Positions 10,960 through 45,819 of a stretch of 64,000 nt of DNA are shown here, one piece after another (the first letter of the stretch is position 1; each line of letters begins with the position of its first letter). The notes below the pieces were generated by a model that saw only the letters and a list, made by a program, of their open reading frames with translations, was not told the DNA's origin and did no database searches. The DNA lies in the NCBI GenBank assembly GCA_000004985.1, contig GG738889.1. One strand, given 5' to 3'. The DNA comes from Naegleria gruberi (lineage: Eukaryota). The translations under genes and the position numbers were made by a program.

Positions 10960-12838
10960 ATGGTAATTTCCGATGATTTTTATCAAAGTTTGAACGAGAA
11001 TTATAGTCGTGAGGAAAATTTGAGATTTCATAATAAGTTTAAAGATTCGTGGGTTGTTTTTTCAGAGAATGAAAATAATAGACCTTCATTGGAAAGTAAA
11101 CTAAATAATGAGGCTTCTGAATGGTCAAAAGAGGGCAAATCTGGTATGGGAAGAGAATTTCAGTGTTTACTATTGGAAACCTCTTGTGGAACTGAGCTGA
11201 ATGTAAATCTTTACAATTACAGCTCATTCAAAAAAAGGCTAGAATCGAACTGGATTCAATCCATCATGTGCTACAGTGCAAGTGAAAAATTTGTTCCAAG
11301 TTTGGATTTTCCTGAACTGCACACTTGTTTCAAGTTATATTTCAGAAAGATAGCTCTGAGTGCCATTGCTGAAGCAAGTAGTCATTATAGGCTTGCTAAG
11401 AAATATTGGAGCTCATCTAACACATACAGACCAAAGAAGTATATTGTTCATACTTTTAGAGATTTATTATTTGCTATTCAAATAGTGAAATTCAGAAGAA
11501 TTGTTGACTTTTCTCAGTCCAACGATTTGTATTATGAAATAATGGGAAAAGAGGAAACTGATTGGAATTATTTTGATTCAATTTACTATGCGAGATATCA
11601 AAAAATGAAAGAGGAACTAAATGAACTAGTAATGCTACCACCAATTGTGAAAGAAATTGAAAAACTTCCAAACAGTATTCATGTTTATGTCACTAGAATG
11701 AATAATGACTTCCAATCCATCTCAGATGAATTGGAAAGCTATTTTTCACTGGATATTACACACAAAAATGAAAACAATGTGGAATATCTATATTTTAGAG
11801 GAACAGATGAAACTCCTCTATATTCAGATTTTACCCTGAAGTTGTTTAATGGTTGCATACTCGGTAAATTCAATAATGTCACGGAACTCATCTGCCTCCC
11901 TCATAAGAAAGCTATTCCTGTTGGAAATCGTTATCAACCAAAGGTACTAGATATTAAAAATGGTTGTACCATTTGGAATATTGAAGCCAGTGCAAATATA
12001 GAAAATCTCATGGTACACATATACTATGACATTTTTACTCACAATTGGAAAATGTTACACAATGAAAAACCTAGTTGTGAAATTATATGGAAGAAATTTA
12101 AGGAACTAGGCTATGAAACTCCAAATAATGTAGATTTTACGTATACATTTGAAGTAATATTGGAAAGGAAAACATTTATTATTCAACAAATTAACCTCTT
12201 TTCAATTCAAGATACGAAGAAAGAGGTAATGGTCGATTTTTCTGAAGAGCTCTACTCAACGAAGAGATTAAAACATAATGGACTTACCTCACTGACTCAC
12301 ATTACTAACTATGCTAAGCAAATTAACCCATTGGAAACCAAAGAAATATTAATTATTGAAAAATCATGCATTCTTTCAGTAAGTGTCATTCAATTATATC
12401 GCAAATATTTATGCTATATTAAAGTATATCCTACCTCAATTCAATATTTTGAGCAATAGCTCTGAAAATGCTGCAGAGAGAGTTACCATTGAGCTTTTAC
12501 GTACTTCTCTCAATAATCCTCAACTCATTGAAATGGCAAGAGATTATGTCACCCTTAGATTCAACTCCTCTACGATATTCGATTCCGTACACAAAAAGAT
12601 TTCACTCCTTGTTGATAAGATATGTGACCTTCTCCCTCTAAATTTCAAAACGGAAGGAACAGAAAAAACAATTGGTCAAAGTTTCATCACCGAGTTAAAT
12701 TTTGTAAAGATTTTCCTTGTTTCTCTTCAACAAAAGCTCAAAAAACAATCCACAACCAACAATTTTGATTTTGTTTGCAATTGTTTCAAAGAGGTTGATA
12801 GTGATACGTTTTTTAAAGTGGCCAACACCTTCGAATAA
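10960..12838 (+). CDS. hypothetical protein, about 592 aa, 2 exons
   Basis: ATG at 10960. The track ORFs 10960-12459 and 12383-12838 join through a 100-nt intron 12379..12478 (GTAAGT...gcagag|AG, phase 0). This gives ...EKSCILS|RVTIELLRTSLNNPQLIEMARD... I recognise no domain. Confidence 0.45.
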
Positions 12839-18620: not shown

Positions 18621-19508
18621 ATGCATTCAATAAAAGATCCATTACATAACAACACCACTTCAAGATTTTTTAATAAAAAAATGGAAAATAGATTGGAAGA
18701 ACTTGCTAAACGTTTTGGCAATATTGAAAATTCATTAAACCAATTGCAACAACAATTGAACGGAATTTCCAAGAAGAAATCTGAACAAGTAACAACTTCG
18801 TTATCATCGTCATCCACAACAATAACAACAAGTGAATCCTCATCATCGGCATTGGCATCAACAATCATTGAAAATCCTAATGCAATCATTCATGAAAGTA
18901 ATTTTGATAGAGAGGAACCGAACGATACCGAATTGATAAAGATCGTCAAGAAACAAGTACAAAAATTAGGCTTTAAATTTGCCAATTTCTCTCAAGTCCC
19001 AAAGGATTACTATTCTAGACCTCTCGAAGCCAGACGGGATTTGTTACAAACAGCTAGTATGCATCAATTGTGTAAGAGTTTGATATTGGAAAATTCCAAA
19101 TGTGTGTTGAGTGATTGCTCTGTTAGAACAAATTCCAAATATTATTGTGTGATTGTGCAATATTCAGCCAAATTCAATTCTAAAAAGTTGACTAAATATG
19201 TCAGAGAATTGAATCAAGGTAAATTGGGAAAGAAACAATTTGTTTTTAGTTTGACTGATGCTCCAAAAGCTTTTGAATTGACAGGATATGAATTTAATGG
19301 AGTTTCTCCTGTTGCTTTACCTGAAAAGGAAAATATTAACATTCCAATAGTTTTGGATAAGAAGATCGTTGATGAACATAAACAATTCTGGATTGGTGGA
19401 GGTAGTGAAGATTGGAAAATTTTATTTAACACTGATGAATTTATCAAGATTTATAATCCATTTGTGACAAGTATTACTTATGAAGGAAATGAAATTGATG
19501 AAGAGTAA
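18621..19508 (+). CDS. YbaK/ProX-type aminoacyl-tRNA editing (deacylase) domain protein
   Basis: ATG at 18621. The C-terminal two thirds, ...LTGYEFNGVSPVALPEKENINIPIVLDKKIVDEHKQFWIGGGSEDWKIL..., resembles the YbaK/ProX deacylase fold. The N-terminal part is a Ser/Thr-rich coiled coil. Confidence 0.55.
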   Translation: MHSIKDPLHNNTTSRFFNKKMENRLEELAKRFGNIENSLNQLQQQLNGISKKKSEQVTTSLSSSSTTITTSESSSSALASTIIENPNAIIHESNFDREEPNDTELIKIVKKQVQKLGFKFANFSQVPKDYYSRPLEARRDLLQTASMHQLCKSLILENSKCVLSDCSVRTNSKYYCVIVQYSAKFNSKKLTKYVRELNQGKLGKKQFVFSLTDAPKAFELTGYEFNGVSPVALPEKENINIPIVLDKKIVDEHKQFWIGGGSEDWKILFNTDEFIKIYNPFVTSITYEGNEIDEE

Positions 19509-19646
19509 ATTCATGAAAAGAACTACTTTCTAATATCTGCTCCCTTTCTTGTTGAATTAAAAATGTTAATTGCTTGAGGAAAATGAGATCAAATGCTTAC
19601 TGCCGACTTGGTTAACAATTATAGGGCATAATTTAAGAAAGAGAAT

Positions 19647-19766
19647 GGCTACGGCCATATCACGATGAATGCACCTCATCCCGTCTGATTTGAGAAGTTA
19701 AGCATCGTCGAGCCACATCAATACTGAGGTTGGAGACAACTTGGGAACCTGTGGTGCTGTAGTCTT
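19647..19766 (+). rRNA. 5S ribosomal RNA gene
   Basis: GGCTACGGCCATATCACGATGAATGCACCTCATCCCGTCTGATTTGAGAAGTTAAGCATCGTCGAGCC...GGGAACCTGTGGTGCTGTAGTC matches the universal 5S consensus (GCCTACGGCCATACC...CCGATCTGCGAAGTTAAGC...GGGAATACCGGGTGCTGTAGGC). The 5' GGCUAC pairs with the 3' GUAGUC (helix I). A T5 run follows. Confidence 0.85.
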
Positions 19767-19769
19767 TTT
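19765..19769 (+). terminator. Pol III oligo-T terminator following the 5S gene
   Basis: TTTTT immediately 3' of the 5S helix I strand. Confidence 0.55.
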
Positions 19770-20103
19770 CATTTTTTCTTTTCAGTTAAATGAAGTAAGC
19801 TAAGTTTCGTGAAATATGTTGTCAAACGAATTATTGTATTTTGAGGCAAAAAGAAGACTTTTTATTGAAATCAATTAATATATTGGAGGACTTCCTATTG
19901 AGATTAGAAAGCATTAATCAACTTTTTAGCTTCAGAATCATCTGCAGATGGACTTTGTCTTTCATTGACAACCTTCATAATAAGAGTCAAATTGCATTCC
20001 AAAGTGACAACCAAATCATTGATTAACAACATTCCATTAATCAATGATTTCAAGATAATTTTGAACGGTTCATTTCGTTAAAGTCATGATTTATTTCACT
20101 TAA

Positions 20104-20212
20104 TAATTAGACGGGAAGCCTGCCAGGAATATGGCGACAATCCCGCTACAGTCTTTGACTGTATGAACTGTGAGGTACGTCGTCTTTCGAGTCAGTAAGA
20201 GAGAGTGATTGG
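20104..20212 (+). repeat. copy A of an unidentified ~100-nt element (GGGAAG..AGGAAT..GGCGACAATCCCGCTAC..GTACG..AGTAAGAGAG)
   Basis: Shares ordered blocks with copy B at 20697..20800: GGGAAG, AGGAAT, GGC(G/A)ACAATCCC, TAC, GTACG and AGTAAGAGRG. The G(A/C)CGGG...AATCCCGCTAC core is reminiscent of a 7SL (SRP RNA) Alu-domain 5' region. Confidence 0.35.
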
Positions 20213-20431
20213 AGGAAGAGGCATTGAGCAAGTTCATTTATTGATTTTGAAATTGATCATCACGAAAAAAAATATTTTGGTTAAAGAAATTCATAAATTG
20301 ATCAAAATTGCTCAGTTGGAAATCAGTTCAACTTGTTCATCTCCTTTATGAAATTTTCTCCAATTTCTAGTATTTTTAATTGCTTCAATTCAATGATATC
20401 GCTTAAATGATACTTTGCATTTCTATGAAAC

Positions 20432-20610
20432 ATCTTTCTCGGCCAATTGGGTTTGATCGAGTGTAGTATCTTTTCTTTTCAGTGTAATAGCTGAAACCAG
20501 CCCACCACGGGTTGCCATTACTATTAACTCAATTTTTTGTAGGGTCCAGAGTTGTGCTTAATTGCACACATTGGTTGGCTTCAATCAGATATTGCACTGA
20601 TAGTCAGATT
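20432..20610 (+). ncRNA. U2 spliceosomal snRNA gene
   Basis: ATCTTTCTCGGCCAATTGGGTTTGATCGAGTGTAGTATCTTTTCTTTTCAGTGTAATAGCTGAAA aligns with human U2 AUCGCUUCUCGGCCUUUUGGCUAAGAUCAAGUGUAGUAUCUGUUCUUAUCAGUUUAAUAUCUGAUA, including the GUAGUA branch-point-pairing box. The Sm site AATTTTTTG is at 20531. A terminal hairpin ATCAG-ATATTGCA-CTGAT resembles the human stem-loop IV loop UAUUGCA. Confidence 0.8.
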
Positions 20611-20696
20611 TAGAGCTATCCCACTTGAAAATAGAAAAGTTGAGTACTTTACACTATATTGAATGTTTTGGTGTTTAGAAAGGATATTATCAATAT

Positions 20697-20800
20697 TATG
20701 TAATCTACTAAAGAGGGAAGTATTTAAGGAATGGCAACAATCCCAGTACGAACTGAAGGAAAGAATTCTGTACGAATCTTATTTGTTCAAAGTAAGAGGG
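20697..20800 (+). repeat. copy B of the same ~100-nt element (diverged)
   Basis: GGGAAGTATTTAAGGAATGGCAACAATCCCAGTACGAACTG...TCTGTACGAATCTTATTTGTTCAAAGTAAGAGGG. It lies inside a dubious 80-aa track ORF (20663-20905). Confidence 0.35.
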
Positions 20801-21001
20801 AAAGACAATATTTCATCAACCCAATATTTTGATAGTGGAATGGTTTCTAGCGACACTATTATGGTGATTCACAACAACACGTTGATGTTCAACAACGAGG
20901 TTTAGAATATAAAACTTTATTAATAATAGATAATTCATATAAACATATAAATAATATAGTACATTGACAGATTCTGCTGCTATCATTTCAATTACAGTAT
21001 T

Positions 21002-22048
21002 TTAACAATTGACTTTTGACTTGTAAGATAAAACAACACTTCTATGACACTTAATATGATTAAATGCTTCTTCAGGTGTAAGATTATGAAACTTGATGAG
21101 ATAGCTAATTGCAAAGGAGGTACTTCTACAAATGCCCATATTACAATTAATTAAAACTTTACCATTCTTCTCAAATGCACTTCTCAAAAATTGATTTGCC
21201 TTTTCAAACAATAATTGAGAAACAGAATGGTCAATTGCACCACCATCTGTTCCAAGTTTCAAATACTTGTACTTTTTTTCATTGTTGACCAATAATTCTT
21301 CCAAATTATTATCAACTTCTTCGGCAACATTCAAAATGAAGGTTATTCCGTTGTCGGTGAGTTCCTTATCAGTGTTTGCATTCTCTCTATTGCCAATAAA
21401 TAGAAAATTCTCAATGATTTCAGTTGGATAGAGACCTTGATGACCAATTACATCTTTAAAAGTAACAACATGACTGTACTTTCGAATTTAGGATTGGAAA
21501 CTCCTCAGAATGTAAACATTTTCAACTAATCCTTCCATTTTCAACAATTCTGCAAGTAGTAAAACAGGATACTTTGCAATATCATTCAATTCAATACTGT
21601 CATTGATTCTAATAGGTGATTCAATTAAATTTCCACAATTAGCAAATTGAACATTCTCAACTGAGTTATGAATATCACTGAATTTCAAGTCAGTAACTTC
21701 CTCGCCACCATATAAAAGTACATTCTTATAACCAATACCTCTCAAGGTCCATCCAGGTACATTCTTATATAATTCATTCAAAACCAAAGAGATTTCATCT
21801 GAACTTTCTGAATGCTGAAGCAAATTGGTCAACTTGGTTTTACTGGAAGATAAAAACTCATGACCTACAGTATTCATTGAAGGATGATAATCATCTTCAA
21901 TAGCAGGTGTTGAATAACTTGCTCTGACATGACAAGTGTCATAATCAGCTCTTGAACGAACATCCATGATGATTTTTGCACTGGCAACATCTAGAGTTTT
22001 GTTGTAGAAATGCGTTTGATTGATGAGGAAGATATTTGTTGTTGACAT
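21002..22048 (-). CDS. MAP-kinase-phosphatase-like protein: N-terminal rhodanese domain + C-terminal dual-specificity phosphatase domain; 2 exons
   Basis: ATG at 22048..22046. The upstream exon 21502..22048 carries a rhodanese-like region (IIMDVRSRADYDTCHVRASY). Intron 21454..21501 (48 nt) has a weak donor, GTTTCC..ttaaag, phase 1. The downstream exon 21002..21453 gives NVIGHQGLYPTEIIENFLFIGN...VLINCNMGICRSTSFAISYLI with the CX5R active site. This is the only in-frame join, because the upstream ORF otherwise ends at a TAA at 21488. Confidence 0.6.
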
Positions 22049-25936: not shown

Positions 25937-27830
25937 TTACAATTTTGCATTCTTTTCAACAAATTCCTTAACGTGTTCTCTTGGAGTGAAATAGAGTGGA
26001 TTTTTCTTCGAGTCAATATACAGCAATGACTGATCGAAAGAAGTTGGAGGAAGAACTTCTGGATTTTCATGAGATAATTTGAAATGTCTGACAGCATTAA
26101 TAATACCAAAGTAGAGTTCAGTACTTGCAATACGTGATCCTGGACATTTACGAGCTCCAACTCCAAATCTAAGTATTGTAAACATTCAAATGGTCAATTA
26201 GGATGAAATTTTGCAAAAAAACTTACGGAATGGAAACAAAATTATTGACAGGTGCCAAAGGAGATCCCTTTTCATGACGTTCTGGAATGAATTCTTCACC
26301 ACGTGGAACATATTCATCCTTCATTGTGGCCCATCTTTGCATGGCAATGATAATTGTATCTTTTGGAACTGTATATCCACCAATTTCTGTATCTTGGCTC
26401 AATTGTCTTCCCATAGTGAGATAGGAGAAGGAATTTAATCTCAAAACTTCTTCAACAAAGTTTTTAGTGAGCTTGAGCTTTTTGTAATGTTCCTTTGCTA
26501 TTACAAGTCCATTTTCTGAAGTCATTTCTTCAATGGTTGGTTCACCGAAAATTTCAACACTTTCCTTATAAATCTTTTCCTGATATTCTGGATGGTGAGC
26601 AAGTCTGTACAAGCAGTGACCTTTACAATTGGTCAATTGGGACATGAGTTGTGAAAAACTTACATAAAATTCTTACTGTAATATCAATGCCAGCTTGTAA
26701 AAAGTTAATCATGACACTTTCAATTCTGGCATTTGCTTGATCTTGATCTTTAGCTCTATTTTCCAATAATTCCAATAATCTTTCCTTTTCGGATGGATTA
26801 GTTTTGAATCTCTGAATGCAATATCTTGCAAATTCGTATGATTTATCATAATATGTTTCAAATTCCTTAAATTCCTTGGTTTTGTAAAGTCTGTAGAATG
26901 GTGGTTTGTGATCCAACATGATTGCCATATCGAGAACAGAAACTGAATATTTCACAAAGTCACGAATTTCAAATGGAAGAGATTTTGCAATGTCATCAGT
27001 CATTTTCACACCCTATTTCATTAAATTACACAATTTCATTAAATTTCAATCGGTCAACTAGAAAAACTTACAAGGAAAACCTTCAAAACAGCATCAAAAG
27101 CATATCTTGAAGTAGTGTCAACAGTATTAAGCAATTGATACTTGTCACTTTGAGGAACATGTTTCATATTAGCAACAAGTCTTCTCAAAAATTCACCATT
27201 CAATTCAGTCAACTGTGGAATTGTAATATTTTCTTGGAATTCAGGTCTCATGGCAATATTAAACAATTGACGAATTGAATTCCAATCTTCATCAAGTCTC
27301 AACTCAACTGGAGAAAGTACCAAACCTCTTGGTTCTTTATAATATCTAGTACTTTCCAATAACTTTCTTCTATCTTCCTTTTTAAACAATTCAGATAACA
27401 CATATGGATTAGCAATAATCAACATGTTAGTTCCAAACACAGTCAACTTGACTAAATCTCCATATGTATCACACAGGGAAAGAAAATACCCAGAAGGATT
27501 GAATGCATTCTTCTTAATGTCAATTAAATTGCCGATCAGTGGCCATGGCTTTGGTCCAGGAACTTGATTCCAAGGTTTGATTTCCTTTATAGTATTGGCA
27601 ACGTTTTGATGATAGGGACAACCAGCTGTTTGATTTGTTGAATTGTCAGTTTCGACTGTTTGTGCAAGTGTCGAATTTTCCTTGTTATTCGATGTGAAAT
27701 GTCTTGTTTGAGTGGTGGCAGATGAGATCAATGATTGTGAATTTTTAATAACTGCATTACTACTACTACGTAATAATAAACAACATGTGTTTGAGGTGGA
27801 AGTTGTTCTTGTCAAGAGTTTGGAAAACAT
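25937..27830 (-). CDS. cytochrome P450 monooxygenase with N-terminal presequence-like extension; 4 exons
   Basis: ATG at 27830..27828. Exons are 27072..27830, 26664..27012, 26227..26620 and 25937..26168. Introns are 27013..27071 (GTAAGT), 26621..26663 (GTAAGT, 43 nt) and 26169..26226 (GTAAGT). Intron 2 was chosen because it restores canonical I-helix spacing, AGIDIT-VRILCHC-LYRLAHHPEYQ, matching AGxDTT-x7-LYxLAxxPE. P450 motifs are PGPKPWPLIGNL, ExxR and the heme loop SIP|FGVGARKCPGSRIASTEL split by intron 3. The N-terminal 60 aa are S/T/R-rich (MFSKLLTRTTSTSNTCCLLLRSSSNAV...). Confidence 0.8.
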
Positions 27831-43331: not shown

Positions 43332-44104
43332 GATTTTTCCTCTAACATTTAAATGAATAGGTTTGTTACTTGCTTCTAATTTCTCTCATAATTTTTACAC
43401 ATGTCTTGAATTGACTGATGGTTCTGAACTCGATGCATTTCTAGACAAGCGTTACATTCCACTGATTTCCTGATGCATTGTTCTTTCTGATGTGATCGAC
43501 TGCTTTTTGTGCATGCACTGAAAAGAGAGCAAGAATGAATCAATAGATGAAATACGAAAAATTCTTAACATTTCAGAGCAATAAGCGATATGATACTTGT
43601 TGCAACCTATATTTTCTAGTAATAATGTACATAGAATGTCTTAATTGATTTCTGACCTTATTGTTGTAATACAGCAAAAATAGTATATTATCCATTTTAG
43701 TACATTAACAAATGTTTTGGAATAAGCAGCTTTTTTGGAAATGCCTACAACAGGCCTCTTTGGCTGCTGATTTTTTTCCATGGACCAATAATACAATAGC
43801 TCCTCTAACAAACAATATATTGAAAGTATTCTTCATTATCAATAAATCTTCAATTTTTCAATATCCATTCAACTCCCAAGCCAAAGTAAAATATTTTGTA
43901 ATCATCATTCCAGTTTTTCATCTTTCCAAGGACTCCGCATTATCAAGCTTTTGGCTTTGAGATGGGTGACTTGCATTTAGTCTTCATCATCTTGTTGCGT
44001 TGAAGGTTCGGCTACGTTTTTGGCTTTCATCCCTTCTTCGAGGACTTCTTGCAAAAAAATATTTGACAAACTCCAATATAAAACCTTCTTCTTTTGTTTA
44101 AAAA

Positions 44105-45819
44105 ATGATGAAGAAAATCGTTTCTGGTACCTCTGCTAGCAGACGTATCACTTCTGTTGAAACTGTAAAGAAGATGTTGTTCGCTCAACAAAGCAGATTT
44201 GAATCCAAAGTTTATTCATTCAATATTGATAAGGTAAGAATTGTCCGATATGTTGTTTCTATCATGATGTTTTCTGATGAATGATTTTTATATGTATTGT
44301 TATTTGATGTTGCTAAAACATGTTTGTTGTGGATTTGATGCACTTTTTGTATAATGTTGTGTTTTTGAAAATTGATTGGATTTTTTCGTCATCATGATTT
44401 TATTGGCTTATTGTTATAATACATTTCTACTATCATTATTGCTATCATATCATCAACAACTATATATGAATATATATTATATACAAAAAACATTCCTAAC
44501 AACAATTGATAATATCTATTATTAACGTTACCTAATATTATTATTGATAATAATACAACTATTAATTCATATTATAATCACATCATCATCCAACTAATAA
44601 CAATGAAATGATAATAGGAAAAGGCTTTCAAGTTCCATCTCCCAACCAAACATATGGAAGGTATTAACTGGGAAGGTCCAAAGTCTGAAGTTAAACTCAC
44701 TAAGGAAGAATTGATTGCCATGTACCGTATGATGGCTTTGATTAGAAGATTTGAATTGGTTTCTGACCAACAATACAAGGCTCGTAACATTCGTGGTTTC
44801 TGCCATTTGTACAGTGGTCAAGAAGCTATCTGTGTTGGTATTGAACATGCCACCAATCGTGCTGACTCTGTCATTACTGCTTATCGTGATCACGGTTTCC
44901 AATTGTGTAGAGGTGGTTCTGTTGAAAGCACCATGGCTGAACAATTAGGTCGTGCCACTGGTTGCTCAAAGGGTAAGGGTGGTTCTATGCACATGTACAA
45001 GATTGACCAAAACTTCTTTGGTGGTAACGGTATTGTCGGTGCTCAAGTCCCAGTTGGTGCTGGTCTTGCCTTTGCTCACTCCTATTTGGATAGATTGAAT
45101 AACAAGCAAACCAAGGATAAGAATGTTACTTTTGCTCTCTATGGTGATGGTGCTGCTAACGTAAGTTGTTTCAATATTAATGGTTTTAACACAAACAATT
45201 TGAATTTGCATTTTCACATAATTATTACATTTTTCAATATATATTTAAATAATAGCAAGGGCAAATCTATGAAGCTTTCAACATGGCCAAGTTGTGGCAC
45301 ATTCCAGTTATCTTTGTCTGTGAAAACAACAAGTATGGTATGGGTACTTCCATGCAACGTTCTTCTGCTTCTACTGATTACTACACTAGAGGTGATTTCA
45401 TTCCAGGTATTTGGGTTGATGGTATGGACATTATTGCTGTCTATGAAGCTGCTCGTTATGCTAAGGAATATTCTCAACAATTTGGTCCAATCGTTCTTGA
45501 ACCAGAAACTTACAGATATTATGGTCACTCCATGTCTGATCCTGGTATTTCTTACAGAACCAGAGATGAAGTCAATGAAGTCAGAAATACTAGAGATCCT
45601 ATTGCCAGATTGAAGGCTAGAATGATCGAACAAGGTATTGCTACTGAAGATGAATTGAAGGAAATTGATAACCAAGTTAAGGAAGAAGTTCAACAAGGTA
45701 CTGAAAAGGCTATTGCTGCTCCACTCCCACCTCTCCACGAACTCGTTGAAGATGTCATGGTTGGTCCACACGTTGTCAGAGGTAGAACTGTTGACGAAAT
45801 GTACTCATTCAGTAAATAA
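44105..45819 (+). CDS. PDHA: pyruvate dehydrogenase E1 component alpha subunit, mitochondrial; 3 exons
   Basis: Exon 1 (44105..44233) is [23 protein letters not shown]...NIDK, a presequence. Intron 44234..44617 is 384 nt (GTAAGA..ataatag). Exon 2 (44618..45160) is [21 protein letters not shown]...YRMM...[12 protein letters not shown]...GKGGSMHMY...YGDGAAN. Intron 45161..45255 (GTAAGT..aatag). Exon 3 (45256..45819) is [32 protein letters not shown]...[12 protein letters not shown]. This is a close match to PDHA1 throughout. Confidence 0.85.

Follow-up and report, generated by a model that had tools for sequence, protein, structure and literature searches.

We find that the longest stretch without sizeable open reading frames (ORFs) in a 64,000-nucleotide (nt) window of the Naegleria gruberi genome (contig GG738889.1 of assembly GCA_000004985.1; "the window" means this whole analysed stretch) holds an intact 5S ribosomal RNA (rRNA) gene and an intact U2 small nuclear RNA (snRNA) gene. 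It is probably (roughly 65%, in our estimate) an ordinary small-RNA locus of this species, in which two flanking "elements", here called A and B, represent no demonstrable repeat family. When the whole window was scanned with Rfam at the curated gathering thresholds, 5S and U2 were the only two matches, and both scored far above threshold, in agreement with the original prediction, which had named these two genes from the letters alone. Both genes are on the plus strand with 665 nt between them, inside an island (19506-21004) in which no ORF of at least 100 codons occurs over 1499 nt and which is bounded by the stop codons of two converging protein genes, a YbaK-type gene on the left and a phosphatase gene on the right. 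The features that carry this finding are as follows.

19647-19765, plus strand: 5S rRNA gene, full length (Rfam RF00001)
19765-19777, plus strand: T5 (19765-19769) and T6 (19772-19777) runs, a terminator-type signal for RNA polymerase III (Pol III), read from the sequence
20430-20623, plus strand: U2 snRNA gene, full length (Rfam RF00004)
20463-20468, plus strand: branch-point recognition box GUAGUA, inside GAGUGUAGUAUCU, aligned with GUGUAGUAUCU, an invariant block in the Rfam consensus
20531-20539, plus strand: U2 Sm site AAUUUUUUG, from the sequence and the Rfam alignment

The 5S rRNA gene

The 5S gene matches RF00001 over the full model (positions 1-120) with 99.5 bits against a gathering score of 38 (E = 1.6e-20), and it ends in the T5 terminator that had been claimed for it. 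A TATA-like sequence, AATTTAAG, lies upstream at about -16 to -9 (19631-19638). A published analysis reports about 279 5S genes for N. gruberi, some of which are arranged in tandem; these genes have a TATA box upstream, an internal control region and terminators made of T runs (PMC3369914). Mechanistically, judging from that published analysis and from the sequence at hand, Pol III would read the present copy from its internal control region, aided by the upstream TATA-like box, and transcription would end at the T5 and T6 runs just past the gene. When the gene was set beside the 5S gene of Willaertia magna, seven of the 36 predicted pairs had changed on both sides and were still paired, and none was broken, a pattern that is, as judged from the two sequences, the signature of a gene under structural selection.

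Directly past the 5S terminator, the segment 19771-19791 (ATTTTTTCTTTTCAGTTAAAT) is identical at 18 of 21 positions to nucleotides 37-57 of U2 (20468-20488), including an exact 13-mer, TTTTCTTTTCAGT. This likeness is probably a chance match in T-rich sequence, a fragment of U2 being the other option.

The U2 snRNA gene

The U2 gene matches RF00004 from model position 1 to 192 with 92.7 bits (gathering score 46; E = 3.5e-17). The RNA likely begins at A20432, from which the sequence AUCUUUCUCGGCC starts as expected for the 5' end of U2. At the other end, stem-loops III and IV align to the Rfam model with some non-canonical pairs, and the loop of stem-loop IV reads AUUGCAC within UAUUGCACUG (20590-20599), a U2B''-type loop. 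The fold z-score of the gene is -2.77, and none of 200 shuffles folds as well. The interval first proposed for it, 20432-20610, was thus right in identity and about 10 nt short at the 3' end, where it cuts through stem-loop IV; an end at 20617-20623 fits better. Since the T6 run in the Sm site would stop Pol III, the gene is most likely transcribed by RNA polymerase II (Pol II), presumably from upstream elements, and the resulting RNA would carry every block needed for branch-site recognition and for assembly of the small nuclear ribonucleoprotein. A genome-wide screen for spliceosomal RNAs published in 2008 took in N. gruberi, and only U1 needed an extra, unfiltered search (PMC2396436).

An upstream block common to both genes

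One short block precedes both genes and is listed here as direct repeat D2.

19566-19590, plus strand: upstream block at -81 to -57 of 5S, candidate common promoter motif (direct repeat D2)
20376-20400, plus strand: upstream block at -56 to -32 of U2, partner of 19566-19590 (direct repeat D2)

The two blocks are identical at 19 of 25 positions and contain the 10-mer TTAATTGCTT, which has only two sites in the 128 kb of searched strand (both strands of the 64-kb window), namely at -81 of 5S and at -56 of U2; the extended form of the motif is TTAATTGCTT-N6-AATGANATC. By chance 0.42 occurrences are expected, and two or more were seen in 4 of 100 shuffles, a figure to be read with the knowledge that the 10-mer was spotted after the fact. 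A close environmental relative of N. gruberi (metagenome run ERR1078381; our loci L009:1974-2143 and L132), with 92-99% protein identity to N. gruberi, retains about 90% identity in the non-coding region upstream of 5S on a contig that ends 22 nt into the 5S gene, and the motif bears a 1-nt indel there (L009). As a candidate upstream module common to the two genes, the TTAATTGCTT block is more promising than A and B, and to specialists it could give a first handle on small-RNA promoters in Heterolobosea.

The locus in related genomes

The orthologous neighbourhoods of both flanking genes were compared in Naegleria fowleri, Naegleria lovaniensis, W. magna and further relatives. Local gene order was not conserved across these neighbourhoods; a 5S gene lay nearby in Willaertia alone, and neither a U2 gene nor either element was present in any of them. 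In W. magna (L008:10001-11680), the 5S gene is found at 11562-11680 with 107 bits, about 780 nt downstream of the YbaK-type orthologue, so that the YbaK-type gene and 5S have the same order and orientation as at 18621-19765 of the window, and no 5S gene occurs within 10 kb of the orthologous loci of N. fowleri and N. lovaniensis. Either the YbaK-5S linkage is old and some Naegleria species have lost it, or, given hundreds of 5S copies, it is a coincidence. That this 5S copy keeps its place beside a YbaK-like gene in W. magna could interest specialists. Beyond this the finding adds little: 5S and U2 are textbook genes, the genome of N. gruberi was made public in 2010, and earlier work has counted and described the 5S family of the species.

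Elements A and B and the nature of their similarity

The original prediction had described two diverged copies of an element of about 100 nt on either side of U2, and had offered them as further small-RNA genes or as promoter modules of the snRNA type. They are delimited as follows.

20110-20205, plus strand: "element A" (core 20131-20149), from the core match and a gapped alignment; status uncertain, no Rfam match
20713-20802, plus strand: "element B" (core 20731-20749), uncertain and probably not a gene (fold z-score -0.4); no Rfam match

What the two have in common is a core of 19 nt (ATGGCGACAATCCCGCTAC from 20131, ATGGCAACAATCCCAGTAC from 20731), identical at 16 of 19 positions on the same strand at a spacing of exactly 600 nt, together with patchy flanks. 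A gapped alignment extends over about 114 nt (20091-20204 against 20696-20801) at about 60% identity, and the blocks GGGAAG, AGGAAT, the core GGCRACAATCCC, GTACG, GTAAGAG and ATTTTGA occur in the same order in both. With three permissive scoring schemes the pair outscores 195-199 of 200 shuffles, and with BLAST-like scoring it falls within the shuffle distribution. BLASTN against the window (word size 7, E <= 1) did not report the pair, and nhmmer (--max, E <= 100) did not find either copy with the other as query. Element B aligns better to an unrelated place, 26707-26854 on the minus strand, than to A, and ten further two-copy "repeats" of like grade exist in the same 1.9 kb. Neither the 64-kb window nor 115 kb of loci from Naegleria and Willaertia contained a further copy, and the metagenome contigs listed for the core pattern, at least 120 of them, were all chance matches. 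The claim of a repeated element thus does not stand as a statement of significant homology.

The proposed functions fared no better. With Rfam at E <= 10, applied to 1.8 kb and, with lax filters, to two short segments, nothing real was obtained for A and only noise appeared, such as a cobalamin riboswitch at 10 bits; the short segment of B had no match at all. Downstream of B there is no small-RNA gene and only about 200 nt of A+T-rich DNA up to the phosphatase stop codon. The reading of A and B as small-RNA genes or as promoter modules is unsupported.

Several observations weigh against reading the locus as two ordinary genes with nothing else of note. Among about 2100 segments of the window, both strands included, B is the top match to A under permissive scoring, and it comes from the same island and the same strand. 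The pattern GTAAGA-N25-55-ATTTTGR occurs three times in the 128 kb, two of these being A and B, where it should be borne in mind that the pattern was picked after they had been seen. The segment 20108-20252 (plus strand) of A folds with a z-score of -2.86, better than 199 of 200 shuffles. Finally, the island exceeds the needs of the two genes by about 1.2 kb, in a genome that is compact, so that further unrecognised genes in it are plausible. The fold values in particular are poor evidence here, since the sliding scan gives even the genuine 5S and U2 genes z-scores of no more than -0.7 to -1.4, which makes it a weak instrument; B, with its z-score of -0.4, folds no better than shuffles. On balance we lean towards chance as the source of the similarity between A and B, a brief core match at chance level whose flanks agree only in patches; at the very most, the two are what an ancient local duplication has left behind in eroded form, and nothing marks them as RNA genes.

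Beside these elements, positions 20013-20050, between the 5S gene and element A, form a perfect inverted repeat of 14 nt (AAATCATTGATTAA / TTAATCAATGATTT) around a 10-nt loop, within a zone of steadily negative fold z-scores (19950-20250).

Alternative explanations

Such a duplication could be taken further than we have taken it. A U2 unit of about 600 bp (element, spacer and U2) may long ago have been duplicated in tandem, with A and B as true paralogues that have since diverged heavily, and their common blocks may be distal regulatory sequence of U2; the position of A, at -320 to -225 of U2, is comparable to that of the distal enhancer of vertebrate snRNA genes. The exact 600-nt spacing of the cores on one strand, the preserved order of the six blocks and the rank of B as the best match to A would all follow the pattern of such an event, whereas the standard homology tests fail, no second U2 remnant lies past B, and B is placed downstream of U2, facing the 3' end of a protein gene. 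Moreover, DNA so diverged would, if neutral, not normally stay alignable, which implies that the similarity is either constrained or due to chance. We consider a duplicated U2 unit unlikely.

A small nucleolar RNA (snoRNA) of the C/D-box class on the opposite strand, proposed regardless of what A and B may be, seems to us quite doubtful.

20183-20269, minus strand: candidate snoRNA with C/D boxes (simple C/D scan), whose span overlaps the 3' part of element A

This candidate would run from 20269 to 20183, with box C GUGAUGA at 20263-20257, box D CUGA at 20195-20192 and a terminal 6-bp stem, UUUUUC/GAAAGA; the boxes and the closing stem suit an RNA of 87 nt, and it was the sole candidate of the simple scan on both strands of the 64 kb and fell within the small-RNA island. 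Shuffled windows, however, give about 1.1 such candidates each, so only the location is suggestive. The closing stem is offset by 3 nt from box D, clear C' and D' boxes were not seen, and no Rfam snoRNA family matches. The guide would consist of the 12-15 nt preceding box D (CACUCUCUCUUA), a low-complexity (CU)n sequence, and would direct 2'-O-methylation; its putative target is an A in a suggested large-subunit rRNA sequence, AAGAGAGAGUG.

It is highly unlikely that A, and perhaps B, encodes an undescribed small RNA, either one of the Sm class or resembling a spliced-leader (SL) RNA, or else a transcript of Pol III, about 100-140 nt long, that terminates at the first T4. In the SL-like version, a GUAAGAG or GUACG resembling a 5' splice donor would be followed 35-50 nt later by an Sm-like AUUUUGA, and both copies show motifs of the two kinds in this order (the Sm-like one being GAUUUUGA in A and UAUUUUGA in B), but they are short and were chosen post hoc. 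Element A is predicted to form three hairpins followed by a single-stranded GAUUUUGA; these hairpins are predicted in A only, B lacks a stable fold, and the inner stem of the first hairpin of A is gone in B. For a Pol III transcript, T4 is absent from both copies until about 100-115 nt past the core. The spare length of the island in a compact genome would leave room for such a gene, and SL RNA, 5S and U2 share one unit in Diplonema (PMC10161547). Against this, no Rfam family fits, and the candidate exon upstream of the GU donor is poorly conserved between A and B. When kinetoplastid and diplonemid SL sequences were used as queries, B was found to have UUCUGUAC in common with them and yet ranked 46th of about 3200 window segments, and A was at background, so SL homology was dropped.

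In its most specific form, this idea would make A and B diverged genes for an unrecognised Sm-class RNA built like a spliced leader, with a 5' segment, a GU donor and an Sm site, and grouped with 5S and U2 as in Diplonema; we regard this as far-fetched. If true, Heterolobosea, which are sister to the trans-splicing Euglenozoa, would have an RNA of the SL type or a relic of one. To our knowledge, SL trans-splicing has not been reported for Heterolobosea.

Other identities for A and B were considered and dropped. Both cores start ATG GCN ACA ATC CCN (MATIP), but a stop ends the frames after 11 and 33 codons and splicing gave no plausible product, and the small ORFs of the island have no exact protein on record. 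U1 on the minus strand (CUCUUACU) does not agree with the short introns of the window: because these use the donors GTAAGT, GTATGT or GTTAGT, U1 should carry ACUUACCU, and no such U1 5' end, nor a U6 core, occurs in the window. A vault RNA is unlikely, as Naegleria is without full-length MVP and TEP1 (PMC12547018). A tRNA-like element with a box B was set aside, as ARAGORN finds no tRNA in the window, and a CR-I of RNase P or MRP (GGGAAGCC) has neither a complementary CR-V strand nor an Rfam match.

Flanking genes and the wider window

The two genes that bound the island are the following.

18621-19508, plus strand: left flank gene, a protein with a YbaK/aminoacyl-tRNA-editing domain (Pfam PF04073)
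21002-22048, minus strand: right flank gene, a dual-specificity phosphatase with a 39-nt intron (Pfam PF00782)

Orthologues of the YbaK-domain gene are present in N. fowleri, N. lovaniensis and W. magna. The translation of the phosphatase gene has a rhodanese-like segment followed by the dual-specificity phosphatase domain and, with the 39-nt intron removed, is identical at 335 of 335 residues to an NCBI N. gruberi "predicted protein" (P0056), which identifies the window as nuclear DNA of this species. This intron (21466-21504, minus strand; GTTTAC...GAAAG), spliced out in the NCBI model, is very short, its length is divisible by three and its GTTTAC donor is unusual; the reading frame is open throughout but for one TAA at 21490-21488. 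Other ORFs of the window have 55-69% identity to N. fowleri and N. lovaniensis proteins.

The island had been presented as the only sizeable region free of credible ORFs. At a cut-off of 100 codons it is indeed the longest such gap and not the sole one, the runner-up being 43386-44596 with 1211 nt. This second region has the lowest G+C content of the window (about 28%, with about 33% across the window as a whole) and is without an Rfam match.

Comparison with known systems

As a member of the eukaryotic nuclear 5S genes (RF00001), including the family of about 279 copies in N. gruberi itself, the 5S gene described here is typical in its full-length match, three-arm structure, TATA-like box and T-run terminator; it differs from the tandem arrays of that family in being a lone copy amid protein genes. 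Similarly, the U2 gene has the 5' end, the GUAGUA box, stem-loops IIa and IIb, the Sm site, and stem-loops III and IV with AUUGCAC that define U2 snRNA (RF00004), and departs from the model in a G-G mismatch in stem I besides the non-canonical pairs flagged in III and IV.

Like the spliced-leader RNAs of Euglenozoa, A and B are close to a 5S gene and show a donor-like motif (GUAAGAG or GUACG) that an Sm-like AUUUUGA follows after 35-50 nt, whereas their sequence similarity to these RNAs is not above chance, the putative exon is unconserved between A and B, and there is no tandem array. Only expression of the two elements as Sm-class or SL-like RNAs would give the locus a bearing on how spliced-leader trans-splicing arose in Discoba.

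Linkage of 5S to SL RNA or snRNA genes is well known among eukaryotes, including protists and animals. The original prediction was on firm ground in invoking it, since such linkage is documented, for example, in Diplonema papillatum, where SL RNA, 5S and U2 form one tandem unit that its authors call exceptional and that is missing in other diplonemids (PMC10161547). The further suggestion, a "transcription hub" of Pol II and Pol III, claims more than is shown, namely two close, co-oriented genes. The Naegleria pair differs from the Diplonema unit in being a single occurrence within 64 kb and not a tandem repeat, with no SL RNA gene demonstrable beside it, and because the Diplonema unit is exceptional and absent from other diplonemids, common descent of the two arrangements is unlikely. 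Overall, what the two loci have in common is the pairing itself: in N. gruberi, as in D. papillatum, a member of Discoba carries 5S and U2 on the same strand within 700 nt of each other.

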